Assembly (NCBI GenBank): GCA_041481345.1
Contig: JBGPBQ010000002.1
Coordinates: 1-45,850 of the forward strand
Direction of reading: 5' to 3'
DNA: 45,850 nucleotides
Source of the DNA: Anaerolineae bacterium
GTDB taxonomy: Bacteria > Chloroflexota > Anaerolineae > Anaerolineales > UBA4823
Shown: positions 99 through 45,850 of the stretch, in pieces
Numbering within the stretch: position 1 is the stretch's first letter
Layout of the letters: each line of letters starts with the position of its first letter
Translations under genes and position numbers: made by a program
The notes under the pieces: generated by a model
The model's database searches: none
What the model saw: only the letters and a program-made list of their open reading frames with translations
Told to the model about the DNA's origin: nothing

Positions 99-956
99 AT
101 GTATAATGAGTTCATGGAAAAATATATCTCGCAAATAGAATTGATAAAAGAATTGGGTAAGTCAAAAATTATTGCAAATGAGCGCCTGCTGATTTCATGG
201 CGGGCGTGGGGCGCAATCCCCCACCGAAAGCGAGGGCTTGGCAGAGGCAAGGGCAGTGTCACTGAATACCCGGCCGCGGTCACACAACAGATCCAACGGC
301 TGCTTGAACTTCTCGACGAAAAGAGGTCGCTTGACTTTGCTATTTACCAACTGTGGCGGGAAGGCTATCCGGTCAATCTGCGCAAAGTAATCAAGCGCGA
401 CCTGAGGAAGATCAAGGATTTACAAGACGCGTTGTCAAAAAATGCATGGTATGATGGAGATGGAGAGCAAGGAGGAACCAACAAGAAGTACGGACAAAAA
501 CGTCTACCGCGTGGTGGACTTCTCGACCGTGTCCGCCGGACTTTGGGAAAGGAAGATTTCGTCTTTTTGGTTGAGGCTTTAGTAATCGGTTTTACGGCCT
601 TAGCCTACTACAAAGCAGAGCACATTAGTGCGTTCATGGAATTACTACCGGATCAATTAGACCGCGAAGGAATTGCGGTTGCATTGCAACACGTTGCCTC
701 TGACATGTCAATTGAGCACCTCGAAGTTACCCTAAATAATGCGCTAGATGCTGATTTTCCAATTGCATATAATAAACTGGAGACTGGCATAGACTGGCTT
801 AGAGTCAATTACCCCCTATTTGGAGATATCCCGCCCGTCAGTGAATGGCACGGTTTTATGCTATCACTCGGTTTACTCTTATGCTTATCACCATTCGCTG
901 ATCGGGGATTTTTAGAGATGTATCATCTAGAGACTGTGTTACCTGCGGAGATATGA
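99..956 (+). CDS. Hypothetical protein with N-terminal helix-turn-helix-like segment (neighbour of solo Cas1)
   Basis: 285-aa ORF. An alternative ATG at 114 lies 7 nt after a TATAAT at 102-107. The N-terminus ISQIELIKELGKSKIIANERLLISWRAWGAIP resembles a MerR/excisionase-type HTH. The rest matches no family I recognise. A strong terminator follows. Confidence 0.5.
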   Translation: MYNEFMEKYISQIELIKELGKSKIIANERLLISWRAWGAIPHRKRGLGRGKGSVTEYPAAVTQQIQRLLELLDEKRSLDFAIYQLWREGYPVNLRKVIKRDLRKIKDLQDALSKNAWYDGDGEQGGTNKKYGQKRLPRGGLLDRVRRTLGKEDFVFLVEALVIGFTALAYYKAEHISAFMELLPDQLDREGIAVALQHVASDMSIEHLEVTLNNALDADFPIAYNKLETGIDWLRVNYPLFGDIPPVSEWHGFMLSLGLLLCLSPFADRGFLEMYHLETVLPAEI

Positions 957-1084
957 TAAAATAAGGGCACAAAAGAAAGCGGGCTGCGCAAGCGTTCGAG
1001 ACGCTCACACAGCCCTGACCCTATAGCCGGAGTAAGCGGCGCAAGGGCTACACAAATTCTACCAGAGGCCTTTGTATATTTCAA

Positions 1085-1117
1085 CCACTTACCCGATATG
1101 GGTAAGTGGTTTTTTTA
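1085..1117 (+). terminator. Rho-independent terminator between the HTH-like gene and cas1
   Basis: Perfect 10-bp stem CCACTTACCC / GGGTAAGTGG with a 5-nt loop GATAT, followed by a run of 7 T. Confidence 0.75.
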
Positions 1118-1145
1118 TTTAGGCATTGATAGGAGGCATTTTACG

Positions 1146-2183
1146 ATGCAAACCAAACTTACCACCGAGCAGCGTTCAATACCAGTCAAAGATGGCACAG
1201 TCATACTCTCCGGTTACTCGGTCTCAGCAAAAACAGAAAAAGGTTTCTTATGTTTACATTATGGCTGTGCTGAGGATCAACATACGGCTAAGTATTCACC
1301 TGCCACCTGCAAGATCAAGCGCCTTGTAATCTTAGGGCATGATGGATATATTACTTTAGCAGCACTAAAATGGCTTTTCGACATCGGAGCGGGAATTATT
1401 CAAATCGGATTGGACGGTGAAATTATCCTTGCCAGTGCGCCTCACCGTGAACATATCGCTATCAAGCGCGCTCAATATGCCGCAGTGGATAACCAGAACG
1501 GTTGGGACATCACCACCTACCTTGTAACGCGTAAAGCCTATGGCCAAGCCCAGGTATTAAGCAAATACGCGCACAATGCAACTTGCACCTATCAGGGTGA
1601 CACATTAGATACCACTCGCTTTATCAAGTCGCGCGCTTCTGAAATCAAGCAAGCGCGGAGTATTCCCGAAGTGCTCGTGTTGGAGGGTATTATCGCTGTG
1701 GCTTACTGGGATGCTATCTCGAAAATTTACCTTCGGTTTAAAAAGAAAGACAGTAAATATCTACCTAATCACTGGCTTACTTTCGGGGCGCGACATTCGC
1801 TAATCAATCCAAAGGTAAACCGAAACGCAACTAATCCTGCTAACGCCATGTTAAACTATCTTTATGCTTTACTTTATGCTGAGACGTGTATTGCGTTGCT
1901 TGGAGTAGGGCTTGATCCTTATGCGGGCATTATCCATCAGGACAACCCCTACCGCGCTTCATTCGCTTATGATGTAATGGAAGCGGCACGCTCTGAGGTT
2001 GACGCGTGGCTACTGGACTTCGTATCTTCCTACACCTTCTCGCGCCACGACTTCTACCATAAACCTGACGGCGGGGTGCGGGTGTGCCTGCCTCTCGCCC
2101 GCCGCCTGGCTGAAACCGCCTCACTCTGGCGCGCCGCGGTCATTGAACCAGTGCATAAAGTGCGAGGCAGACTGGCACGTTGA
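1146..2183 (+). CDS. cas1: Cas1-family endonuclease/integrase homologue, stand-alone
   Basis: ATG at 1146 is preceded by TAGGAGG. The track start at 1098 lies inside the terminator stem. The Cas1 catalytic-domain pattern is present: VLEGIIAVAYWD, ATNPANAMLNYLYALLYAE, GLDPYAGIIHQD and SFAYDVMEAARSEVD (Glu, His, Asp/Glu). The N-terminal beta-domain pattern is ITLAALKWLFDIGAGIIQIGLDGE. Confidence 0.8.
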   Translation: MQTKLTTEQRSIPVKDGTVILSGYSVSAKTEKGFLCLHYGCAEDQHTAKYSPATCKIKRLVILGHDGYITLAALKWLFDIGAGIIQIGLDGEIILASAPHREHIAIKRAQYAAVDNQNGWDITTYLVTRKAYGQAQVLSKYAHNATCTYQGDTLDTTRFIKSRASEIKQARSIPEVLVLEGIIAVAYWDAISKIYLRFKKKDSKYLPNHWLTFGARHSLINPKVNRNATNPANAMLNYLYALLYAETCIALLGVGLDPYAGIIHQDNPYRASFAYDVMEAARSEVDAWLLDFVSSYTFSRHDFYHKPDGGVRVCLPLARRLAETASLWRAAVIEPVHKVRGRLAR

Positions 2184-2471
2184 GCCACGAGGGGAAGTAG
2201 GCTTAGTGGGGTAGGGACGGGGAATGGATCCACAAAAAAACGCAGGTCGAAGAATTAGCACGCGGAAATCTTCGAAGGCGCAGGATGCCTGTCCGATGGG
2301 TTAGGGTCGCATCGTAGACCCCCCCAAAACAAGGGGGGACTTGGACTCCCCCAATTACTTATAACCAGTAATTGGGGGAGGAGTAAAGTTATGTCAGTAA
2401 TCGAACTGTAGAATTCATCTCCCCTATCCCGAATATTTTTTCGGGATGGGGGAGGTGGGAGGGGGTCTTTT

Positions 2472-2915
2472 TTATGTGATGCTTGTGTAATGTAGAATAT
2501 AATGCTCGAGCTGGGTGATCATCTCCTTTTGCTCGGAGATGATAGAGCGCACCAGGTCACCAATCGAGACCATGCCGGTCATTTCTTCTCCCTCGACGAC
2601 GGGCAGGTGGCGGATATGTTTGGCAGTCATCAGGGTCAGACCCTGCTCGTTGGTCATATCGGGGGTGGCATAGACCACATGTGGGGTCATGATCTCGCGC
2701 ACGAAGGTCTTTCTGGACGTCTTCCCCAACAAGATGACCTTGCGGGCGTAGTCGCGCTCAGAGAATATCCCCACCAATTTTCCATACTCCATCACCGGCA
2801 GTGCTCCGACGTCTTTATCTGCCATGATCTGCAGAGCTTCATAAACAGTTGCGACCGGCGAGGTGCTCCAAACATCACTCCCCTTTTCACTTAAGATCTT
2901 GCGTATGGTTTGCAT
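2472..2915 (-). CDS. CBS-domain pair protein
   Basis: 147 aa with two CBS repeats: VYEALQIMADKDVGALPVME..LVGIFSERD and LTLMTAKHIRHLPVVEGEEMTGMVSIGDL. Confidence 0.85.
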   Translation of the reverse strand: MQTIRKILSEKGSDVWSTSPVATVYEALQIMADKDVGALPVMEYGKLVGIFSERDYARKVILLGKTSRKTFVREIMTPHVVYATPDMTNEQGLTLMTAKHIRHLPVVEGEEMTGMVSIGDLVRSIISEQKEMITQLEHYILHYTSIT

Positions 2916-3034
2916 TGTGTCTTCTCCTGGCGAATTATTATAAACCCTGGATTCCTGATGGAGGAATTATATTCAGAAATATGGATTTTACAAGCTACGA
3001 CTTATGAGAATCAGCAGGAAGTATAATTTACTGG

Positions 3035-3844
3035 ATGAATCTGCGCGCCGACCATGAACTTAAATCAGCCCTCTCCGAGCTTCAATCTGCTGAGGCTGAG
3101 CTCGAGGCACTGAAAAGGCAGCTGCGCTCCTTCGAAGACCAGGTGGATAGCCGTATGGGTAGTCTGCTGGATGAGTTATCTGATCTGAATGCCGAAACCC
3201 TTACCCTGGATGGGAAATTGAGGCATATCCGCGAAGTGCGTCTGTTTGGCAGCGACCTGATGAAGTACCTGGACGGTGCACCCCAGCCGCCTCGCACGCT
3301 TAATCTGGCAGACTTGCCTCCACCGGTGCTGGCAAGCCACAAAGGGGTCCAGCTGAATCCCAACCAAACAGCCACGCAGCAGGATATACAGGCACCCGAT
3401 ATCAAGGTGCTGTACCGCAGGCTGGCCCGCCGCTTCCACCCTGATCTGGCGCGCACTGATACCGAGCGTGCCCTGTCGAACGACCAGATGAAGGAGATTA
3501 ACCAAGCCTACACTGCAGGAGATTTGCGAACCCTCATGAGACTGGCGGGGATGACCCTCGCGTATGGGGTTGATTTTGGACCGCCATCGATTCTCCCAGA
3601 AGCTTTCCCAAGCCAACCTATGACCGAGCTGGAAAAGGCGAAGCGTAAGCTGGGAGGGCTGCGCCAGCAGATCAACAACCTGAGCAGCCTGCCGATTGTA
3701 AAGCTCAGCCTGGACGTCAAGCTGGCACGCCACCAGGGGCGTGACCTGCTGGGTGAGATGGCAGCTGAGTTACAGTACAAGGTTGCACGAAAAACCGCCG
3801 AGCGTGATTACCTGCGTTCACAGATCGCGGCAAGCGAGGTTTAA
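3035..3844 (+). CDS. J-domain (DnaJ-like) protein with N-terminal coiled coil
   Basis: YRRLARRFHPDLAR....MKEINQAYTAGD contains the HPD motif. Heptad-like Leu/Glu-rich segments flank it. Confidence 0.7.
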   Translation: MNLRADHELKSALSELQSAEAELEALKRQLRSFEDQVDSRMGSLLDELSDLNAETLTLDGKLRHIREVRLFGSDLMKYLDGAPQPPRTLNLADLPPPVLASHKGVQLNPNQTATQQDIQAPDIKVLYRRLARRFHPDLARTDTERALSNDQMKEINQAYTAGDLRTLMRLAGMTLAYGVDFGPPSILPEAFPSQPMTELEKAKRKLGGLRQQINNLSSLPIVKLSLDVKLARHQGRDLLGEMAAELQYKVARKTAERDYLRSQIAASEV

Positions 3845-3924
3845 TCTATGTAGCCGTCATCGCTGATGGCGGATGAATATAAATGTTTGACGATTCCGTG
3901 GGTGCCCTCTTTTGAAGAAAAACA

Positions 3925-4386
3925 TTAATAAATCGCCCTGGTTACAAGGGGTAAGTAAATTTTCATGATTGGTTGGGCCAAAAAATCACACGCTTTTAAC
4001 TCATGACCAGAATAGTGCTGCCAATAACAGGTATCAGCCTTGAACTGCAACCCTGACCGTTCAGCCCATACGGTGACCATTTCATCCCCCGGAATAGTAT
4101 AGAATACCGATTGGTAATTACCCACGTTATCGGTCGTAGCGATCAACAACTTCGCGTAACCGGCATACTTGGCATATATGGCCACATTTTCCACGCCCAC
4201 TCCATTCGAGTTTCGCACAGAACCAGAGACCACAATTCCAGGTGCAGTCTCTGGGACGGAAGTATTCTTAACTACAGTATTATCTGATCTGTGAGAATTA
4301 ATTACGCGTATACCCAATACAATGAGCACGATAAGCAGGTCAGCACATACGATCGCGATCAACAGCTGCCTTCCTTGTGATTTCAT
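3925..4386 (-). CDS. Membrane-anchored protein with carboxypeptidase-regulatory-like beta domain
   Basis: N-terminal TM helix LLIAIVCADLLIVLIVLGI, followed by SGSVRNSNGVGVENVAIY...TDNVGNY. Confidence 0.4.
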   Translation of the reverse strand: MKSQGRQLLIAIVCADLLIVLIVLGIRVINSHRSDNTVVKNTSVPETAPGIVVSGSVRNSNGVGVENVAIYAKYAGYAKLLIATTDNVGNYQSVFYTIPGDEMVTVWAERSGLQFKADTCYWQHYSGHELKACDFLAQPIMKIYLPLVTRAIY

Positions 4387-4395
4387 CCTGATCCC

Positions 4396-5193
4396 TTATC
4401 TTCCCTCAGCTGCTTTCCAAGCGCTGAATAAGGCATGCCCGGCTTGCATAAAATGTACCTCGATGCCGGTAAATCCCGCCTCCTCCAGCCATTTCAGCTG
4501 GTCGAGTAGCGGGCTGGGATGGTCAATGTCATCCGGGTCGAGGTAGCGGTAGGTGTTCCATCCCTCACGCAGGAAGAAATCGAATCCGGCCGCGCTTCCA
4601 TCCAGCTCCAACGAACGTTTACGCACCACCTCATCCCAGGCATCGGCAGCTACATTCCTGCCTGCGTTCGTCGCCGGCTCGACCATATCGGCGATGATGA
4701 ATGCCCCTCCCTGGGCGAGCATAGCGTACACATCCTTGAATAATAATCGCTTGCCTTCACCATCCAGGTGGTGGATGGCGAGCGAGGACACCACCGCATG
4801 GAATGACTGTTCGAGTCAGCGCCTGCATAAATCAGCCAGGTCGAAGCGGTTCAGTTTAACCCGCTCACCGAAGCGGGAGAGTCGCTACCCAGAATGTTCC
4901 AGCATCAGCGCGGATCCGTCCTGGCCAAGGTAAGTCGCCGAAGGCAGCCCATCCAGGATCAGCTCCGCCAACATACCCTCCCCTCACCCTAGCTCGAGGA
5001 TCAGGCTCGGCTGTGGGACCCCCTTGAGCAGGTCCACTATGATGCGCATCTGCCCCTCGCGCTCCGGCACAAAGGAGCGCCCGAAATCAAGGTAGCGCTT
5101 CGAGGTGTCTTCATCCCAGCGATTTTGGGAGAAATCCTCACTCATAAAATTGGGATAGCCTCCAATTGATCCAATTAAGTATGATTTAATCAT
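4396..5193 (-). pseudogene. Class I SAM-dependent methyltransferase disrupted by three in-frame stop codons
   Basis: ORFs 4984..5193 and 4396..4794 are in the same frame. Translating the gap gives ILELG*GEGMLAELILDGLPSATYLGQDGSALMLEHSG*RLSRFGERVKLNRFDLADLCRR*LEQSFHAVVSSLAIHHL. The stops are TGA at 4984-4986, TAG at 4885-4887 and TGA at 4816-4818. The first stop sits inside SAM motif I (ELGxGxG). There are no frameshifts. Confidence 0.75.
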
Positions 5194-5335
5194 ACCTCAA
5201 TTCATTAAAAGATATATAGCCGCCTCAACGATCACGGCTCGCCGTAATTGGATCATCCCCAATCCTTACAAACCTGTCAGTTATCCCATCCATGCCGGGC
5301 CTGTCTCATCAATTATATTGCGGTAAAATTAATTA

Positions 5336-6043
5336 ATGTTGTTTTCTCTGGTTTTGTTTCTGCTGCGAGCGATCCTGCGCATCATCTCTCGCGTTACTGT
5401 ATTTGGTGCCGAAAATATGCCCCCGGCTGGCACAATCTTTATTGTCGTCGCCAACCACATCGGGCGACTGGACCCAGGCTTCGTTTACTACCTGCTCAAC
5501 CGCAAAGATATCATCATGCTGGTGGCCGAGAAATATTATGAGCATGCCTGGTCACGAGTGCTGGCGCAAGCAGTCAACGGCATCTTCGTCGACCGCTATA
5601 ACGCCGACCTGGGCGCCTTGCGTGAGGTCCTGCGGCGGATAAAACAGGGTGGGATTGCTGTCATCGCCCCCGAGGGCACCCGCAGCCCCGATACATCACT
5701 GATCCAGGGATGGGATGGCGCGAGCTACATTGCAGCCAAGGCTGGCTTACCCATCCTGCCGGTAGGCATTGCCGGCAGTGGGGATAAAGAAGTGGTGGAA
5801 CGGCTGAAACATCTAAAACGCCTACAAGTGACCGTCAGCGTTGGCCCTACCTTCACCCTGCCCCCATTCGATAATAAGAAGCGTGACGAACAGCTGACAG
5901 CATCTACCGAAGAGATCATGTGCCGCATCGCAGCTGAGCTGCCGCCAGCGTATCGGGGCATTTATGCTGATCATCAGCGATTGAACGAGCTGCTGGCATC
6001 CAGGCCTGAGAAGATTCACCAGCCTCCGGTGGTGCTGGGATGA
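5336..6043 (+). CDS. 1-acyl-sn-glycerol-3-phosphate (lysophospholipid) acyltransferase, PlsC family
   Basis: NHIGRLD (the NHx4D motif) and APEGTRS motifs. Hydrophobic N-terminus. Confidence 0.8.
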   Translation: MLFSLVLFLLRAILRIISRVTVFGAENMPPAGTIFIVVANHIGRLDPGFVYYLLNRKDIIMLVAEKYYEHAWSRVLAQAVNGIFVDRYNADLGALREVLRRIKQGGIAVIAPEGTRSPDTSLIQGWDGASYIAAKAGLPILPVGIAGSGDKEVVERLKHLKRLQVTVSVGPTFTLPPFDNKKRDEQLTASTEEIMCRIAAELPPAYRGIYADHQRLNELLASRPEKIHQPPVVLG

Positions 6044-6068
6044 GCACCATGGACAGGATGACCCTCGA

Positions 6069-6638
6069 ATGAACATTAATCGGCGTCTCAATGCCATCGC
6101 GGAAGCCCGCCTCCTGCTTGAATCCAATCCTGTGTATTTAGATACAGAGACCACCGGCTTGCACCAGACCGCCGAGGTGATCGAGATCGGGATTATCGAC
6201 GAGCAGGGAGAGATACTGCTTGAACAGCGTATCCGACCGCGTGGCAAGATCGATCCTGCTGCAGCACGTTTGCACGGGATAACCCTCGAAATGCTAGCTG
6301 GTGCCCCCACTTGGGAACAGGTCTGGCCCCAGGCAGAGGCCGTTCTATTGGATAAAAGGGTCGGGGTGTATAATGTTGAGTTCGATCTGCGTTTGATCAA
6401 GCAATCGAACCAACAAACCTGGCTGCGATCGAATTTGCTGGAGAGCAATTTCTTCGATATCATGAAGCTGTATGCACGTTATTTTGGAGATTGGGACCCT
6501 TACCGTCAATCATTCCGCTACCAGTCATTGGAATTGGCTGGCAGGCAATGCGGTATTCAGCTGCCCAATTCTCACGGTGCGGTGGATGACTGCCTGCTGA
6601 CACGGGCATTATTGCACCACATGGCGGAAAGTGTATGA
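6069..6638 (+). CDS. DEDDh 3'-5' exonuclease (DnaQ/epsilon-like domain)
   Basis: ExoI VYLDTETTGL, ExoII VYNVEFDLRL and ExoIII SHGAVDDCL are all intact. Confidence 0.8.
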   Translation: MNINRRLNAIAEARLLLESNPVYLDTETTGLHQTAEVIEIGIIDEQGEILLEQRIRPRGKIDPAAARLHGITLEMLAGAPTWEQVWPQAEAVLLDKRVGVYNVEFDLRLIKQSNQQTWLRSNLLESNFFDIMKLYARYFGDWDPYRQSFRYQSLELAGRQCGIQLPNSHGAVDDCLLTRALLHHMAESV

Positions 6639-6675
6639 GTTTATTTTCTAACTCCTTTCAGGACTTGACCTTGAA

Positions 6676-6710
6676 AGCTAATTGCCAGATGCTAACTGCT
6701 AATTGCCAAC
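6676..6710. repeat. Short heptanucleotide tandem repeat (5 units, TGCYARN)
   Basis: AGCTAAT TGCCAGA TGCTAAC TGCTAAT TGCCAAC, immediately upstream of the ATG at 6712. Confidence 0.6.
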
Positions 6711-6711
6711 C

Positions 6712-7287
6712 ATGAGCCTACTTGATGCCCAACTTGAAGCCCGAAACCTGCTCCAGCAGGGCCCGTTGTTCTTGCACAGTAAGACGACAGGTGCTTTGGA
6801 GCTTTCTGAGGTGGTGGAAATTGCCATTCTTGACAGCTCCGGCATGCCTCTGGTGGACGAGCTGGTGAAGCCGAAGCGTCACATCCGGCCGAATGCCACG
6901 CAGGAACACGGCGTCACCGATGATATGGTGGAAACAGCCCCCAGGTGGGCGGAGATCCTACCTAGGGTCGAGGAAGTCCTGGTTGGGAAGAAAGTCTGCG
7001 TGTATGATCATGCCAGTGAGCTGCAGGCGCTGCAAAATTCGTACAATAATATCCACCAGCGTTGGGTTCTGGATTCTGATAATTTCTACAGCTTGATGGA
7101 CTTATTTTCTCGTTATAAGAACGAACGCGATCCCCGAACGGGAGCGTTCCTAACCTATTCGCTTGAAGAGGCAGCCCGCCTGGTGGGGATCGACATTGAG
7201 ATCATCGCTTTTCGGCGTGCGCATGAGGATGCCTGGCTGATGCGCGCGATTTTATTGGCAATTGCAGGTTGGAAGGTTTATTATTAA
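6712..7287 (+). CDS. Exonuclease-fold paralogue with degenerate catalytic residues
   Basis: Collinear with the upstream exonuclease, but ExoI is LFLHSKTTG (D to H, E to K), ExoII is VYDHASELQ, and the ExoIII His is replaced (RRAHEDAWL aligns with SHGAVDDCL). I prefer ATG 6712 over TTG 6703. The stop TAA overlaps the ATPase ATG (TAATG). Confidence 0.65.
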   Translation: MSLLDAQLEARNLLQQGPLFLHSKTTGALELSEVVEIAILDSSGMPLVDELVKPKRHIRPNATQEHGVTDDMVETAPRWAEILPRVEEVLVGKKVCVYDHASELQALQNSYNNIHQRWVLDSDNFYSLMDLFSRYKNERDPRTGAFLTYSLEEAARLVGIDIEIIAFRRAHEDAWLMRAILLAIAGWKVYY

Positions 7288-9581
7288 TGCAGATCGAGTC
7301 ACGGGAAGTAAAATATTCAATTAAAGGGATGGACTGCGCTGATTGTGCCCTTAGCCTGGAGCGCAGCCTGGCGCAGATCGAGGGGGTAGACCAGGTAAAC
7401 GTCAACTATACTACCGGTTTACTTGAAGCAAACGGCAGTTTTGATATTGACGAGCTGATCAAACGCGTGGAAGCTTTGGGTTACAAGGTTGCGCCTCCAG
7501 GACAATCTGCAGAGAAAGGATCAGGCAGCGAGCGATCTCAAACCACACCTGCGATTAAGCTTCCAGGATTCCTGGGATATCTGTATGCATCAACCCAAAC
7601 CCGCCTGGCGCTCTTGGGTGCCATCTTGCTGCTACTGTCGATTCCGTTGGCATTGGTTCAGGGGTCGGTGGTAAGCCAGTGGCTCAAGACGGGCCTGCAG
7701 ATCACTGCTGCCATCCTGGCAGGATACCCGATCGCCAACCGTGGTGTAAGGGCGCTTGTGATCGGCCGTCAGATCACCATTGACCTGCTGATGAGCATTG
7801 CCACCCTGGGTGCACTGCTGATCGGTCAGATGGCGGAAGCCTGCACGGTGATCTTGCTGTTCGCCATTGGTGAAGCCCTTGAGGGATACACCGCAGAGAA
7901 GGCGCGCGACTCGCTCAAAAGCCTGCTGGCCCTCAAACCTGAACAGGCGCACGTAATGCGCCCGTGCATCGACTGCAATGAGCACATGGGTCTGGAGGGT
8001 TACACCGGTGGACCCTGCCCGGAGTGTGATGAGCATGAAACCACAGTGCCCATAGACGAGGTCCTGATTGGCGAGACTGTGATCGTCCGTCCGGGTGAGA
8101 GCATCCCGGTCGATGGTCACGTCGCCAGTGGAATCTCGTCGGTCAACCAGGCACCTGTCACAGGTGAATCCGTCCCGGTCCAAAAGGCTCCTGGGGATAA
8201 GGTCTATGCTGGCACATTGAACGGCGATACTGTGCTCGAGGTCACCGTTTCACAGATGTCCACCGATTCAACCATCAGCCGCATTGTGCGCCTGGTAGAA
8301 CAAGCTCAAGCCAAGCGTGCTCCCGTCGAGCGTTCTGTTGACCGTTTCGCGGCCTGGTATACCCCGGCAGTCGTGCTGATGGCGGTATTTATCGCCGTGA
8401 TCCCGCCCCTGCTGTTCAATGCCCCGTTCCTGGATGTTAATGGTGTGCATGGTTGGTTGTACCGCGCCCTGGCGCTGCTTATTGTCGCCTGCCCGTGTGC
8501 GCTGGTCATCAGCACCCCTGTAACCATGGTCAGCTCATTGACCGCGTTGGCAAGCCGCGGTGTGCTGGTCAAGGGTGGCGCATATTTGGATGTGCTGGCG
8601 CGTGCTAGGCTGATTGCATTTGATAAAACCGGAACGCTCACCCTGGGTCATCCCACCGTCACGCAAGCCAGGTCAGTGGACTGCGTGCCTGATGCCTGGC
8701 GCTGCCCGGCCTGTGATGATATGCTGGCCTTGGCTGCCACCGTTGAGCGGCGTTCGGAGCACCCGCTGGCCCAGGCGATCATGGCTGAAGTCGAAGCTCG
8801 CCAGCTCACTCACTCCTACCCGGCGGCTGAAAGTGTCCAGTCCCTCGCTGGTCAGGGTGTGCAGGGTTACTCCAATGGCAGCAGCATCCTGGTGGGCAGC
8901 CATGACCTGTTCCACGCACGTGACGATAGGCTGGACCGGGAATTACATGCCAATATCCAATCTGCCGTTGACGAAGGACTGACTGTGATGCTGGTGGGGA
9001 AGGATGACAGCTTGTTGGGTTATGTGACGGTTGCGGATGCGCCGCGCCCGACCAGCGCTGAAGCCCTCCGGCAGTTAAAAGCCATCGACCCACATCTTCT
9101 CACGGTAATGCTGACTGGGGATAACCCGGTGGTGGCAGGCAAGGTGGCGCTGGCACTGGGCAGCCTGGATGAGGTGCGGGCGGGTCTTTTACCGGAGGAT
9201 AAGCTGGAAGCAATCCGTGACCTGCAGACCCAGCATGGATTGGTGCTCATGGTGGGGGATGGGGTGAACGATGCCCCCGCTTTGGCAGCTGCCGACGCCG
9301 GCATCGCCATGGGTGGGGCAGGCTCAGCCCAGGCCATGGAAACCGCCCACGTGGTGTTGATGCAGGATGACCTGACCCACCTGCCCGGAACAATTCGCAC
9401 CGCCCGCCTGGCCCAAAAAATCATTAAACAGAACATCGCCTTCAGCCTGGCGATTAAGGCAGCATTCCTTTTACTGACCCTGCCTGGTTTGGCGACGCTC
9501 TGGATGGCAGTCTTTGCCGATATGGGCGCGTCTTTACTCGTGACGCTGAATGGGATGCGGATGCTGCGCTCTAAGAAATAA
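7287..9581 (+). CDS. Heavy-metal translocating P1B-type ATPase, Zn/Cd/Pb (P1B-2) signature
   Basis: HMA domain GMDCADCALSLE, CPC in VACPCALVISTP, DKTGTLT, SEHPLA and GDGVNDAPALA. TM7 has N-x7-K (NIAFSLAIK) and TM8 has DxG (ADMGAS). ATG at 7287 is in frame with the track TTG at 7269. Confidence 0.9.
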   Translation: MQIESREVKYSIKGMDCADCALSLERSLAQIEGVDQVNVNYTTGLLEANGSFDIDELIKRVEALGYKVAPPGQSAEKGSGSERSQTTPAIKLPGFLGYLYASTQTRLALLGAILLLLSIPLALVQGSVVSQWLKTGLQITAAILAGYPIANRGVRALVIGRQITIDLLMSIATLGALLIGQMAEACTVILLFAIGEALEGYTAEKARDSLKSLLALKPEQAHVMRPCIDCNEHMGLEGYTGGPCPECDEHETTVPIDEVLIGETVIVRPGESIPVDGHVASGISSVNQAPVTGESVPVQKAPGDKVYAGTLNGDTVLEVTVSQMSTDSTISRIVRLVEQAQAKRAPVERSVDRFAAWYTPAVVLMAVFIAVIPPLLFNAPFLDVNGVHGWLYRALALLIVACPCALVISTPVTMVSSLTALASRGVLVKGGAYLDVLARARLIAFDKTGTLTLGHPTVTQARSVDCVPDAWRCPACDDMLALAATVERRSEHPLAQAIMAEVEARQLTHSYPAAESVQSLAGQGVQGYSNGSSILVGSHDLFHARDDRLDRELHANIQSAVDEGLTVMLVGKDDSLLGYVTVADAPRPTSAEALRQLKAIDPHLLTVMLTGDNPVVAGKVALALGSLDEVRAGLLPEDKLEAIRDLQTQHGLVLMVGDGVNDAPALAAADAGIAMGGAGSAQAMETAHVVLMQDDLTHLPGTIRTARLAQKIIKQNIAFSLAIKAAFLLLTLPGLATLWMAVFADMGASLLVTLNGMRMLRSKK

Positions 9582-9748
9582 GACTTATCCCAGGGGTTCT
9601 TCTGGTACTACAAAAAACATGACCAGATATATGAGGATAAAAGAACCAAATCCAAGCCGGGCACCAATGACGAACACCAGGCAAACAATGATCGGATCAA
9701 TCCCGAATAATTTACCAATTCCGCTACACACACCGGCGATTATGCGGT
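9363..9748. repeat. Direct repeat copy 1 (ATPase 3' end plus pspC 3' part)
   Basis: Aligns with 11737-12122 at a constant offset of 2374. Positions 9517-9650 are identical to 11891-12024 (134 nt). By eye, identity is about 90 percent on the left of that core and about 70 percent on the right. Homology ends abruptly at 9748/12122. Confidence 0.85.
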
Positions 9749-9752
9749 TTAT
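9585..9752 (-). pseudogene. 5'-truncated PspC-domain gene copy
   Basis: The minus-strand frame reads INRIIAGVCSGIGKLFGIDPIIVCLVFVIGARLGFGSFILIYLVMFFVVPEEPLG*. An in-frame TAA lies directly upstream and there is no ATG. It is a paralogue of the intact gene at 11959-12162 and is cut at the repeat boundary. Confidence 0.6.
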
Positions 9753-9806
9753 TTAACTTCTGCTTTATACCAGCAAAATCTATAGAAATATATATAGGAA
9801 AAATAC

Positions 9807-9846
9807 AGTAGGATATTTATTATAAAATTAGGATAAATATCCTACT
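9807..9846. promoter_or_regulatory. Perfect 14-bp inverted repeat (operator candidate) upstream of the multiheme cytochrome gene
   Basis: AGTAGGATATTTAT (9807-9820), a 12-nt spacer, then ATAAATATCCTACT (9833-9846), in a very AT-rich tract. A TATAAT lies at 9862-9867 and GGGAGA precedes the ATG at 9889. Confidence 0.4.
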
Positions 9847-9888
9847 ATCTGATTTTACTGCTATAATAAATATAGGGAGAACGCACCA

Positions 9889-11442
9889 ATGCAGAAAAAG
9901 AAGCTATTCCTTTTCTTAGTATCGGTCACAGTTTTATTCATCCTTGGCGCCTGTACTGCAGCTGCTCCTTCACCTACACCAGTACCCACTGCCGTACCTA
10001 CTAACACGCCTTCCCCACAGCCACCCACTCCCACAGCCATACCAACCAGCACGCCGACAGCGCTGCCACCCACTCCCACCGCCATCGCACTTAACGACTG
10101 CAATGCTTGCCACCCAACCCAATTTTCATCCTGGCAAAACGGAGCGCACGCCAACACCCAAAACGATGTGGCGAAAGAGCTGGTGGACGCTCGCAGCGGG
10201 CAGACCCCGAATGAAGTCATCAGTGGTCCGGATGCTGAAGACTGCATCGCCTGCCACGCTCCAAAGGCAGTCACCATCTCCGGTCTTACATCGGAAACCG
10301 CAGCACTAAACCACTTTTTCACCACCACAGACGGAAAGTTCACTGCTGATACCAAAGTTGCCGATGCCGCCAACTGGCCTCAAATCAATTGTGAGACTTG
10401 CCATCAGGTCAAAGATAATCACCAAACTGCGAAATTGGAATTCGGAATTTTCAATTCCCAAACCGCCCAATTTGTAGCCCTGGACGATAGCAGCAAGGTC
10501 TGTGGCCAATGCCATGGCAACCTGCTCATCAGCAGCACCGACCACCAGATCTACAATGCCTGGCTAACCAGTAAGCATAGTGCCACCCAGGTCGATGTGG
10601 CAACCGAATTGGGGGCAAGCCGCAGCGGCCAGACACCCGATGAGGTCATCAACGGTCAGGATTCCGAAAACTGCATCGCCTGTCATGCCCCCACTGCCGT
10701 ACTTGCTAATGGAGGCATGACTGAGGCTGCCGCCCTGAATTATTTCTTTACCACTACCGATGGGAAATTCATCACGGATACAGCCGTCACAAATGAGCCC
10801 GAATGGCCGAATGTTTCCTGCACTGCCTGCCATGATCCCCACAACCCGGGCACCCCGGCTTATTTCAACTCTGCCACAAAACAATATCAGCCCATGGCGA
10901 GCACCAGTGAACTTTGCGGACAATGTCATGGGAATCTACTCTTCGCCAATACTGACCACCTTAGCTATAACATTATTGCTGGCACAGGTGGAATGGGCGT
11001 ACCCGATCAGCAAATGATGCCCGGGGCTACCTGCACCGAATGCCACATGTATAACAGCGGTGTGGATGGCAGCAACTCTGCTCACCTGGGTGGGCACAGT
11101 TGGGCAATCACCGTAAGCGAGCCTGATGGCGGATCCACCACCTCCTGCACACATTGCCATGCGGATATGGATCCAACTAGTTTTGAAGCAAAAATCAAAC
11201 AGCTCAAGTCAGAATTCCAGGTGTTGGATGATTCAGCGAAAAGCATAGTTGATAAAGCCACTCAGGCCATGACTGGTGTCACTACTCCTGCCTTGCTGGA
11301 TAAGCTCAACGAAGCCCAATTCAACCTGACCTACGCTGAATCAGATGAAAGTGGCGGTTTCCACAACCATACTTATTTGATGGCTCTATTAAACGACACC
11401 GTGCAGAGAGCCCAGGAAATCCTTACAGCCCTGGGAAAGTAG
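9889..11442 (+). CDS. Nine-heme c-type cytochrome lipoprotein with PT-rich linker
   Basis: Signal peptide with lipobox ILGAC, then a Pro/Thr linker. Nine CxxCH motifs: CNACH, CIACH, CETCH, CGQCH, CIACH, CTACH, CGQCH, CTECH, CTHCH. An internal module of roughly 170-180 aa is duplicated. Confidence 0.85.
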   Translation: MQKKKLFLFLVSVTVLFILGACTAAAPSPTPVPTAVPTNTPSPQPPTPTAIPTSTPTALPPTPTAIALNDCNACHPTQFSSWQNGAHANTQNDVAKELVDARSGQTPNEVISGPDAEDCIACHAPKAVTISGLTSETAALNHFFTTTDGKFTADTKVADAANWPQINCETCHQVKDNHQTAKLEFGIFNSQTAQFVALDDSSKVCGQCHGNLLISSTDHQIYNAWLTSKHSATQVDVATELGASRSGQTPDEVINGQDSENCIACHAPTAVLANGGMTEAAALNYFFTTTDGKFITDTAVTNEPEWPNVSCTACHDPHNPGTPAYFNSATKQYQPMASTSELCGQCHGNLLFANTDHLSYNIIAGTGGMGVPDQQMMPGATCTECHMYNSGVDGSNSAHLGGHSWAITVSEPDGGSTTSCTHCHADMDPTSFEAKIKQLKSEFQVLDDSAKSIVDKATQAMTGVTTPALLDKLNEAQFNLTYAESDESGGFHNHTYLMALLNDTVQRAQEILTALGK

Positions 11443-11649
11443 GCCTTATCGGAAGATGTTCCCGCCTCCAACAGAGGTAACCTGCTCGATTGAATTTAGG
11501 TTGTTAATGACTTATAACTTACTATTAGGAAGGCCTCAAGCTGTAGATAACTCACATCCAGGTGGGCAACCTCCCCTTTTTTAACCCTTAAGTGTGAGAA
11601 GAAAATTGTTGCCAGGACGCCTGGAATAGGGCGTGCGGAGCGAACAACT

Positions 11650-11955
11650 CCTGCTGCGGGCGCTGACAACCACCATGGAGCGCAGGTGGCAGAAACGTTT
11701 GTCTCTAGCCATGGGGATCGCCCATAGAGACCAATACAGGATGACCTGGCCCACCTGCCCGGAACAATCCGCACCGACCACCTGGCCCAGAATATTATTA
11801 AACAGAACATCGCCTTCAGCCTGGCGATTAAGGCAGCTTTTCTCTTGCTGACCTCGCCAGGCCTGGCGACGCTCTGGATGGCAGTCTTTTCCGATATGGG
11901 CGCGTCTTTACTCGTGACGCTGAATGGGATGCGGATGCTGCGCTCTAAGAAATAA
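11650..11955 (+). pseudogene. Remnant of a P1B-ATPase 3' end
   Basis: From 11737 the frame reads QDDLAHLPGTIRTDHLAQNIIKQNIAFSLAIKAAFLLLTSPGLATLWMAVFSDMGASLLVTLNGMRMLRSKK*, matching the C-terminus of the intact ATPase. Weaker indel-containing similarity extends left to about 11650. No upstream gene body is present. Confidence 0.7.
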
Positions 11956-17112: not shown

Positions 17113-17463
17113 ATGACAATTAACCCTCTGGTTCATCATCGTCGTTCCAACCGGTTGAAAGGGTATGATTATTCTTTGGCGGGAGCGTATTTTGTAACCA
17201 TGGTGGCATGGCAGAGAGAGAGTATGTTTGGAGGTATACAAGAAGATAAAGTTGTTCTGTCTGAAATGGGAAAGGCGATTAAAGCCTGCTGGTTCAGACG
17301 ACCGAATACTTTCAACATCCATTTGGATGAATGGGTAATAATGCCGAATCATTTTCATGGCATCCTATGGATACAGGAATCAGGTACGGGCGAAGCAACT
17401 GCTCGTACAGATTATCATGAATCCAAAACTTTCCCAGCAGATGCTTCGCCCCAACCAATATAA
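17113..17463 (+). CDS. Truncated REP-associated tyrosine transposase-like (IS200/IS605 Y1 family) remnant
   Basis: HHRRSNRLKGYDYSLAGAYFVTMV...VIMPNHFHGILWI carries the HUH motif. The ORF stops about 35 aa later and lacks the C-terminal half that carries the catalytic Tyr. Confidence 0.6.
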   Translation: MTINPLVHHRRSNRLKGYDYSLAGAYFVTMVAWQRESMFGGIQEDKVVLSEMGKAIKACWFRRPNTFNIHLDEWVIMPNHFHGILWIQESGTGEATARTDYHESKTFPADASPQPI

Positions 17464-17492
17464 TCGGCAGTGATCTGCATCGAACTCAAGTT

Positions 17493-45229: not shown

Positions 45230-45524
45230 CCTTAGCTTTAAGCTCTGTAATCGTTATTTTTCACCCCAATAAACTACCCGCCCAAAAGGTTGTTGTATCC
45301 TGATCATTACGAGAAATGTCTGGCTGCCCTATCAGTCAAGAATGATCCCGCCTTTCACCTTGGTTTGCATATATCGTGTTCCAATCTCACCCGCAAAACC
45401 TTAACCCATTCCATACTCCCTCCCCTTTAAGGAAGATTATTATACCGTTTCGCGCCCTCCGCCATGTAAAAAACGAAAGGAGGATTTGCATTCAGTCCTT
45501 CCGATAGACTTATCGATATTTTTT

Positions 45525-45850
45525 CCCCAGGCCAGCCTGTAAGCCGCATTCTGTCCATGCAGGTTTCCCTGCATTGATGATCATCTCTCTAGGACGTAAG
45601 TTACCTCACGCCTCATGCAGTCTACCCGAAGCTGCGGACCTTGCGGCCCAGGTGACGAGCAGCCACCTCCCATGGGATTGCCTCTGCTTGACCTTGCTCC
45701 AGGCGGGGGTTGCCTGGCCGTGGACGTTGCCGCCCACGCCGGTGGTCTCTTACACCACCTTTTCACCCTTACACTTACACCCGTAGGTGCGAGTGCGGTC
45801 TGTTTCTGTGGCCCGATCCGTCAGGTTGCCCCGTCCCGGGGGTTACCCGG
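45525..45850 (-). ncRNA. rnpB: RNase P RNA, bacterial type A, 5' end cut by the window edge
   Basis: The minus strand carries conserved blocks GGGCCACAGAAACAGACCGC, GUAAGGGUGAAAAGGUGGUGUAAGAGACCACC, CCGCCUGGAGCAAGGUCAAG, CGGGUAGACUGCAUGAGG and GGACAGAAUGCGGCUUACAGGCUGGCC. The P1-P4 5' strand (GAGGAAAGUCCGGGC) lies beyond position 45850. Confidence 0.85.

Follow-up and report, generated by a model that had tools for sequence, protein, structure and literature searches.

Casposons are self-synthesizing DNA transposons whose integrase, the casposase, is a homologue of Cas1, and they are the proposed ancestors of the CRISPR adaptation machinery. To our knowledge only a handful of bacterial casposons have been described, and we know of next to no work on the control of their integrase. 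Here we analyze a 45,850-bp stretch of DNA from an Anaerolineae bacterium (assembly GCA_041481345.1, contig JBGPBQ010000002.1), referred to as the window, in which bases 1 to ~2325 very probably represent the right end of an integrated bacterial casposon truncated at base 1. Its two visible genes, one for a helix-turn-helix (HTH) protein and one for Cas1, are separated by a spacer that is a candidate for a conserved antisense RNA gene of ~80 nucleotides (nt). The casposon end is a known kind of element; the candidate antisense RNA is the new feature.

Family 3 comprises the bacterial casposons and includes AceAut-C1, NitAL212-C1, HenMar-C1 and StrAlb-C1 (PMC4046053; PMC4779613). Common to families 2 and 3 is a core of Cas1, an HNH nuclease, an HTH protein and a DNA polymerase whose C-terminus holds an HTH, while the Cas1-solo genes of group 1 show no linkage to a polymerase and often have their catalytic residues replaced (PMC4046053). 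The window is one complete contig and DNA to the left of base 1 is absent, as the initial annotation of this sequence had pointed out. Both open reading frames (ORFs) which that annotation described at the left edge, 99-956 with 285 amino acids (aa) and 1098/1146-2183, are present. The features of this end of the contig are as follows.

99-956, forward strand: gene of the 285-aa HTH protein, with a predicted N-terminal MerR-like winged HTH (residues ~6-110) and a variable helical C-terminal half.
928-962, forward strand: candidate sense promoter of cas1 (pIN-like), found by scan as TAGAGA-18-TATGAT, consensus-level.
957-962, forward strand: conserved TAAAAT box, overlapping the end of the HTH gene.
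968-1050, reverse strand: candidate antisense RNA of ~80 nt (~1049 to 972), with helices P3, P2, then P1 and a U-rich tail.
1015-981, reverse strand: P1 hairpin of 15 bp, followed by the U-rich tail GCUUUCUUUU.
1056-1084, reverse strand: putative antisense promoter (pOUT-like), with -35 TTGAAA at 1084-1079, a 17-nt spacer and a TG-extended -10 TAGAAT at 1061-1056; scan score 10/12.
1083-1122, forward strand: predicted intrinsic terminator or attenuator within the leader of cas1, formed by a stem of 13 bp, AACCACTTACCC-GAT-GGGTAAGTGGTT, and followed by TTTTTATTT, from a terminator scan.
1146-2183, forward strand: cas1 homologue, 345 aa from ATG 1146, with the Shine-Dalgarno sequence AGGAGG at 1132-1137; read as a casposase (integrase).
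2184-2338, forward strand: right arm of the element and its predicted terminus, from motif homology to the ends of relatives.
2226-2233: palindromic subterminal motif TGGATCCA.
2298-2325, forward strand: terminal motif GGGTTAGGGTCGCATCGTAGACCCCCCC, homologous to the Cas1-side ends of the relatives L007, L006 and L004.

The second gene encodes a Cas1 homologue. Its translation holds LEG..AYW, NPANAMLNYLYALL, GLDPYAGIIHQD and FAYDVMEAAR..VD, and it is matched by PF01867 (E 4.6e-39, 134.7 bits with a cutoff of 22.3), by TIGR00287 (E 1.9e-35) and by the generic PADLOC Cas1 models, whereas none of the CRISPR subtype-specific Cas1 models reaches its own cutoff. When the protein is aligned with 17 relatives, Glu196, His280 and Asp292 do not vary, and the residue at 295 is either Glu or Asp, in the window Glu (residue numbers refer to the 361-aa ORF starting at 1098). 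The Cas1 signature with intact catalytic positions, which the initial annotation had reported, is thus borne out. Among solved structures the top match is the Methanosarcina mazei casposase 6OPM (E 1.6e-19, 73 bits, residues 55-337), while the best CRISPR Cas1 structure reaches 1.4e-14. ATG 1146, the start already preferred in the initial annotation, appears better than ATG 1098, because the latter lies inside the conserved terminator hairpin and AGGAGG stands 8 nt before the former; gene callers took part of the terminator for the N-terminus of Cas1 (MGKWFFYL, 1098-1145). This artefactual N-terminus also occurs in the database protein of a relative, P0002.

Homologues of this Cas1 form two groups, one of few short proteins (~345-360 aa, 41-63% identity) and one of many long proteins (~500-530 aa) from Acidobacteriota, Anaerolineales and Gemmatimonadota. 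The latter extend further at the C-terminus, where they have a Cys-rich zinc-binding motif and an HTH, an extension missing from the window Cas1. No repeat-spacer array was found in the window with Tandem Repeats Finder, a repeat finder and Rfam, and no cas gene among the called genes at 2472-45229 (Pfam scan; largest ORFs). Hence the earlier statement that the 43 kb to the right hold no cas2, other cas gene or array stands; a cas2 next to cas1 and a nearby array are absent on that side, the left side lying off the contig.

The nature of the missing part can be judged from relatives. Five distinct elements show one and the same layout: L002/L003, L004, L005 = L006 and L007, found through Cas1 at 45-63% identity, and L095/L096, found through the HTH protein at 50% identity. 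An HTH gene lies upstream of cas1 on the same strand, and beyond it, on the opposite strand, follow small genes, a gene of ~135 aa and one of ~1000-1090 aa. Homologues of the 285-aa protein occupy the position directly upstream of Cas1 in L002, L004, L005, L007 and L095/L096, so that the co-occurrence with this Cas1 clade, which the initial annotation had proposed to check, is observed.

The ~1000-aa protein carries the motifs DxE (lost in the nearest clade), NLxFD, DFKSMYPTVN, KLxxNxxSYG and DTDS, in L004 also the exonuclease motifs FDTET and YxxxD, and D58 and E60 are nearly invariant among 40 homologues. Several homologues match PF03175 or PF00136. A search of the Protein Data Bank (PDB) with a single sequence or with a 3-sequence profile gave no matches; a 40-sequence profile gave 39, nearly all of them family B polymerases, including the top 25, with a best E of 1.5e-3 and an alignment over motifs B and C. 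The C-terminus holds HTH_3-like repeats (HTH_3 at E 1.6e-4). Judged by these motifs and profiles, the protein is a divergent family B DNA polymerase. The ~135-aa protein has an invariant CxxC..CxxC..HH..N.H pattern, on which it is interpreted as a divergent HNH nuclease; neither Pfam nor PHROGs yielded a usable match for this protein or for the 137-, 106-, 237- and 62-aa element genes. Within the nearest clade the polymerases at L002:3052-6327, L005:999-4244, L007:5709-8930 and L095:1283-4732 have lost the ExoI and ExoIII residues, which are nearly invariant in the 40 homologues. There FDTET of ExoI has become FSLVR or YRIKT with motifs A, B and C intact, and these enzymes probably lack proofreading.

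The same linkage recurs on a larger scale. A scan of one genome per species yielded 80 loci with a related Cas1, all in metagenome-assembled genomes (MAGs), 79 of them labelled bacterial and one Micrarchaeota, mainly from Acidobacteriota, Chloroflexota, Gemmatimonadota and Actinomycetota. The closest to the window by Cas1 are Chloroflexota. The polymerase lies within 10 kb of cas1 in 61 of the 80, or 61 of the 67 informative loci whose upstream sequence is long enough, and is nearly always encoded on the opposite strand, 2-2.5 kb upstream. The 19 loci without it comprise 12 with too little upstream sequence, one borderline case and six with at least 7 kb upstream. Inspection by hand of the called genes of L002-L007 and L095/L096 found neither cas genes nor arrays, and Rfam found no CRISPR repeat family in 8 relative loci (125 kb), the 80 genome loci not having been scanned for arrays or cas2. 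A metagenome scan with the window Cas1 returned short contigs only, mostly with C-terminal fragments of Cas1.

Complete ends are found in several relatives. L004 is a 9.1-kb element (2761-11901) that interrupts an ssb gene after the OB fold; it has inverted repeats of 143 nt (99%) and CCGCGTGAAATA as its direct repeat. The insertion adjoins a Rad52/Rad22-like gene and a deoxynucleoside kinase gene, and its target may in turn belong to a prophage or some other mobile region. The inverted repeats measure 134 nt in L006 and at least 126 nt in L007, where they extend into the 3' end of cas1. None came out of an automatic search in L002 and L005, whose loci or contigs stop at or inside the repeats. 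In addition, about 20 elements of 12-17 kb have inverted repeats of 32-71 nt and duplications of ~14 bp. Target-site duplications in the relatives are 12-15 bp long, mostly 14, and most 14-bp duplications of the Acidobacteriota type have GTCAA or TTGAC at one of their ends, both orientations being found, and often with GG before it (L024, L030, L032, L035, L037, L038, L042, L043, L050, L056, L067, L070, L072, L076, L079, L088 and L090). This points to a sequence-specific target of the Acidobacteriota-type casposon, (GG)GTCAA-N9.

Some metagenomic contigs, L009:715-1053, L010:641-985 and L012:635-964 (also L011 and L013), hold only the last ~110 codons of a related cas1; the fragments start at one aligned residue (247) in three cases, and the DNA before them is not Cas1-like. 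These fragments, together with the L007 repeat that overlaps the 3' end of cas1, suggest that very long inverted repeats may copy this end at the other terminus.

In the window the right terminus was placed by comparison with these ends. The terminal motif GGGTTAGGGTCGCATCGTAGACCCCCCC aligns with GGGTGAGGGGGCAGCAGTACGCCCCCC of L007, GGGTGGGGGGCAGGGGGACGCCCC of L006 and GGGGGGGTAGGGACTACCCC of L004, the last being verified by inverted repeats and duplication. The terminus is accordingly predicted at ~2325, or at 2338 if a C7-AAAACAA-G6 hairpin belongs to the element. The palindrome TGGATCCA recurs 3' of cas1 in three diverged elements, namely the window, L002 (~11145-11152) and the inverted repeat of L004, where it stands ~85 nt from the end; it may be a binding site of the casposase or of the HTH protein.

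The spacer of ~170 nt between the HTH gene and cas1 shows a mean column identity of 84% in five elements, although the flanking proteins are only 27-63% identical. The conserved candidate antisense RNA gene and the predicted terminator in this spacer had been missed by the initial annotation. A covariance model of the spacer core has matches in 41 of 93 sources, always immediately 5' of cas1, and among these 41 loci are 36 distant elements, mostly of the Acidobacteriota type, with a Cas1 of ~31-37% identity. At L040:8514-8598 and L061:7381-7464 the RNA motif lies 1.4-2.5 kb upstream of a tblastn Cas1 match, which suggests an insertion, a second copy or a disrupted cas1.

The strand of the structure can be read from its substitutions. 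Read on the forward strand, P1 contains 95 C.A or A.C cells as compared to 6 G.U cells; read on the other strand the C.A cells turn into G.U pairs, which assigns the hairpin to the minus strand. A model of the spacer as a sense-strand leader (R1, R2) was dropped on the same count. In a MAFFT alignment the three-helix model of the minus strand pairs 91.5% of the cells, and P1 is paired to 95.8-97% there versus 82% on the sense strand. Both sides change in 16 of the 25 pairs; the observed values are not reached in any of 500 shuffles, and in slid controls no more than 53% of the cells pair. The minus strand of the window folds into the model with -40.7 kcal/mol (z -4.1), the forward strand with -33.5 kcal/mol (z -3.1).

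The structure is framed by signals of transcription. The -10 hexamer of the minus strand follows TAnnnT, with the first T in 40, the A in 41 and the last T in 40 of the 41 loci, and TTG stands exactly 17 nt upstream of it in ~37 of the 41 as counted by eye, even inside the cas1 reading frame. The terminator scan picks out P1 as a terminator both in the window and in L081. On the sense strand, many of the 41 loci have a box of the TA(A/G)AAT type at 12-30 nt before the hairpin. No Rfam family matches the RNA element at gathering or permissive thresholds, and a search of a collection of papers found no report of antisense RNA in casposons.

Two other explanations of 968-1050 were considered, and taken together we regard them as unlikely, though deserving of attention. 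The element might be a sense cas1 leader or riboswitch: it lies within the 5' leader of cas1, its sense fold is stable too, and it is followed by two different 'expression platforms' in two clades. Here the 95 C.A against 6 G.U cells and the pairing of the main helix, 82% in sense and 96-97% on the minus strand, speak for the opposite strand. It might also be a strand-specific hairpin of single-stranded DNA, for example a priming or origin signal for the element polymerase or a protein-binding site. Such hairpins tolerate G-T pairs and would give an equal G-T bias, which weighs against an RNA. The conserved -35 and -10 boxes with their fixed 17-nt spacing on the minus strand and the U-rich tail are, on the other hand, features of a transcription unit, and a conserved antisense RNA gene of ~80 nt is the candidate we favour.

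The antisense RNA probably controls, and restrains, the expression of the casposase. A sense promoter at the end of the HTH gene would give the cas1 mRNA, the first ~80 nt of which would be fully complementary to a small stable antisense RNA from the facing promoter. In the window clade the leader would then run into the intrinsic terminator (1083-1122), followed by AGGAGG and ATG 1146, and antisense pairing would favour termination, as in the countertranscript attenuation of pT181 and pIP501. This terminator is kept in the window, L096, L002, L007 and L005, and a leader segment, GAGUAAGCGG (~1030-1039), is by eye partly complementary to its 5' arm and a possible candidate antiterminator. The RNA of the Acidobacteriota clade spans both the GGAGG ribosome-binding site and the first ~7 codons of cas1, where ATGGCAGCTAC is conserved even at synonymous positions; it would thus cover the ribosome-binding site, as RNA-OUT does in IS10. 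In both clades the expression of the integrase would stay low.

The 285-aa protein is taken to be the conserved HTH protein of this casposon clade. It has no match in Pfam, NCBIfam, PADLOC or PHROGs, and a homologue search found only 8 relatives, the closest being P0174 with 50% identity in a matching gene layout. An AlphaFold model, run with a shallow alignment, shows a confident winged HTH at residues 6-110 (model confidence, pLDDT, ~90) and a helical, weaker C-terminal half. The Foldseek matches of best probability are of the MerR type, CvkR (7xn2, probability 0.96) and MtaN (0.77), and PadR-type winged-helix regulators appear as well; no match is significant, all E-values being above 0.5. 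The excisionase- or MerR-like HTH of the initial annotation was therefore recovered as a winged HTH in the model, and found no backing in profile matches or in significant structural ones. The HTH call remains weakly supported, and the protein may reasonably be taken for a MerR-like DNA-binding regulator or for a recruitment factor.

From these comparisons the architecture of the whole element can be proposed. It would span ~9-17 kb, judged from the relatives. Genes for a divergent family B polymerase that ends in an HTH and for an HNH-like nuclease, together with several small genes, would fill its missing left part, all on the strand opposite to cas1. The element would close with the MerR-like HTH gene and cas1, terminal inverted repeats would bound the whole, and integration by a staggered cut would leave a duplication of ~14 bp. 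With only 98 bp left before the HTH gene, the contig appears to break off within the divergent promoter region, so that no more of the element than its last two genes and its right terminus can be seen. The pair that the initial annotation saw as a two-gene module would accordingly be the tail of a larger element cut by the contig end, and of the two options offered there the integrase-type mobile element or casposon agrees with the polymerase, inverted repeats and target-site duplications of the relatives, while a new Cas1-based function is not needed. The left part would be present in this genome, and the element may be active.

Composition and a second contig add to the picture of the locus. 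GC content is 47.6% over 1-2338 as compared to 53.1 +/- 2.0% elsewhere, the lowest of all segments of that size, so that the higher AT content noted by eye for the first 2.2 kb is real but modest. A 2.1-kb contig from another sample (L001) has the identical sequence and junction and ends at a different internal base. Exact-protein look-ups gave no match for the 285-aa protein or for Cas1 read from 1146; the 361-aa form of Cas1 matched only this 2.1-kb contig.

Several points weigh against this reading. The polymerase, the HNH gene, the left inverted repeat and the duplication all lie outside the window, and completeness is extrapolated from relatives with only 45-63% Cas1 identity. The polymerase assignment draws on motifs, weak profile matches (E about 1e-3) and Pfam matches in a minority of homologues, the HNH assignment on motifs only with no match in Pfam, and the right terminus of the window was assigned by motif similarity alone. 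The resemblance to family 3 is architectural, by gene content rather than phylogeny.

The window could also hold a decayed remnant, in which no more is left than the HTH gene, cas1, the antisense RNA between them and one terminus, the polymerase side having been lost or rearranged, and in which Cas1 is domesticated or decaying. The contig does end inside the element, as does L001 at a different base, 6 of the 67 informative relatives have no detectable polymerase, and solitary C-termini of Cas1 occur in metagenomes. Yet both ORFs and, with them, the candidate regulatory RNA and its promoter, the terminator and the terminal motif are intact, the catalytic residues of Cas1 are conserved, and contig breaks within polymorphic mobile elements are common. 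We consider a remnant improbable, somewhat more so than a different nature of the RNA element.

Much further behind comes a solitary Cas1 with a new role outside transposition, such as defence or repair, in a two-gene system with the HTH protein. Only two genes are visible and the HTH protein has no annotated family, which would suit such a system. In relatives with enough context, however, the pair never stands alone and lies inside elements with inverted repeats and duplications, and PADLOC gives only Cas1 models and nothing for the partner; we therefore hold this explanation to be very improbable. An orphan CRISPR adaptation gene with cas2, array and effectors just left of the contig end, which the missing left context and the good matches of generic Cas1 models might allow, is the least credible of all, given the relatives devoid of cas genes, arrays (L002-L007 and L095/L096, by hand) and CRISPR repeat families (8 loci, Rfam), the polymerase in most relatives, the subtype models all below cutoff, a casposase as the best structural relative and an HTH gene that is a conserved casposon partner.

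With the casposon end as the preferred reading, the DNA to its right is the host flank. The first called gene, at 2472-2915, encodes a CBS-domain protein, and the genes from 2472 to 45229 belong to housekeeping families only (Pfam): besides the CBS-domain protein an acyltransferase, a P-type ATPase, multihaem cytochromes, dehydrogenases, a GGDEF protein, a BTAD-AAA regulator, a histidine kinase, cytochrome oxidase parts and trehalose synthesis genes. The only Rfam match in the window is a bacterial class A RNase P RNA at 45524-45850 on the reverse strand (190 bits), its 5' end removed by the contig edge. Two adjoining paralogous genes of DnaQ/RNase T-like exonucleases (6069-7287; 189 and 194 aa) are found in this flank, the second without the first acidic motif (LHSKTTG versus LDTETTG). 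An ORF at 17113-17463 (116 aa) reads by eye as a truncated IS200/REP-associated tyrosine transposase (..IMPNHFHGILW..), with no Pfam match at E <= 1e-4, and a weak, chance-level match of the RNA model at 17378-17484 (E 0.03) adjoins it.

Taken together, the loci would define a large and essentially undescribed casposon family in soil and sediment phyla (Acidobacteriota, Chloroflexota, Gemmatimonadota and Actinomycetota), present in at least 80 species-level genomes, with 14-bp duplications that in the Acidobacteriota type mostly follow (GG)GTCAA-N9, and with a dedicated antisense RNA of conserved structure that gates Cas1 in at least two clades through two interchangeable outputs, occlusion of the ribosome-binding site in one and terminator attenuation in the clade of the window. 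We lean towards this proposal, with confidence only a little above even. If true, the RNA would be the first regulator of its kind described for a Cas1-family integrase. A family so widespread in uncultured soil bacteria would provide many complete elements with clean ends, useful to define target choice, and it would offer a testable antisense RNA circuit for a Cas1-family enzyme. As for annotation, the label 'CRISPR-associated endonuclease Cas1' is no evidence of a CRISPR system here.

Compared with known systems, the locus matches the family 3 casposons in architecture, as judged from its relatives. A bacterial host is probable, given the RNase P RNA and the 79 bacterial genomes among 80 relatives, and the gene set of the relatives, in which Cas1 and the HTH protein are joined by a family B polymerase that carries a C-terminal HTH and by a putative HNH-like nuclease, appears to be that of family 3; their inverted repeats are 32-143 nt long and their duplications ~14 bp. 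The long-form relatives carry the zinc-binding and HTH extension of Cas1 like AceAut-C1, and the window Cas1 goes without it like StrAlb-C1 and HenMar-C1. Differences lie in the hosts, which are MAGs of Chloroflexota, Acidobacteriota, Gemmatimonadota and Actinomycetota and thus mostly of other phyla than the published members; in the polymerases, most of which escape the Pfam polymerase models and which in the nearest clade have lost the ExoI and ExoIII residues; in the position of L004 inside ssb, not intergenic; and in the putative antisense RNA of the relatives and the window. Family 2, with the M. mazei casposase 6OPM, has the core gene set in common with the relatives and a duplication of 14-15 bp. 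Its hosts are archaeal, though, its casposases carry a C-terminal HTH that the window Cas1 lacks, and the similarity of 6OPM to the window Cas1 is at the profile level only (73 bits, residues 55-337).

Other Cas1 proteins are more distant in their context. In comparison with Cas1-solo group 1, the catalytic residues of the window Cas1 are intact and its relatives are linked to a polymerase. The CRISPR Cas1-Cas2 module has the Cas1 fold and the catalytic Glu/His/Asp/Glu in common with it, but the window has no cas2, array, leader or effector, and subtype models stay below cutoff. For the HTH protein the nearest parallel is CvkR (7xn2), the MerR-type repressor of type V-K CRISPR-associated transposons and likewise a small regulator beside a transposition gene. 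The N-terminal domain superposes on CvkR with an rmsd (root-mean-square deviation) of 3.1 A over 84 columns at 23% identity and a probability of 0.96, a match that at E 1.1 is not significant, and the C-terminal half of the 285-aa protein is unrelated.

The proposed control of cas1 has its counterparts outside the casposons. In pT181 RepC, pIP501 RNAIII and pAMbeta1 a leader complementary to the antisense RNA is followed by a terminator upstream of the ribosome-binding site, as would be the case in the window, although these are plasmid replication systems and not transposons. The RNA-OUT/RNA-IN pair of IS10/Tn10 has the same facing sense and antisense promoters and a short stable stem-loop RNA fully complementary to the 5' end of the transposase mRNA, and the RNA of the Acidobacteriota clade would cover the ribosome-binding site and start codon in the same way. 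The transposase and the sequence and structure of the RNA are unrelated to those of IS10, and in the window clade the overlap is with the upstream leader. At the level of the sequence the traits of RNA-OUT are all found here, namely a promoter of its own on the opposite strand, a structured RNA closed by a terminator, and a sequence fully complementary to the start of the integrase mRNA.

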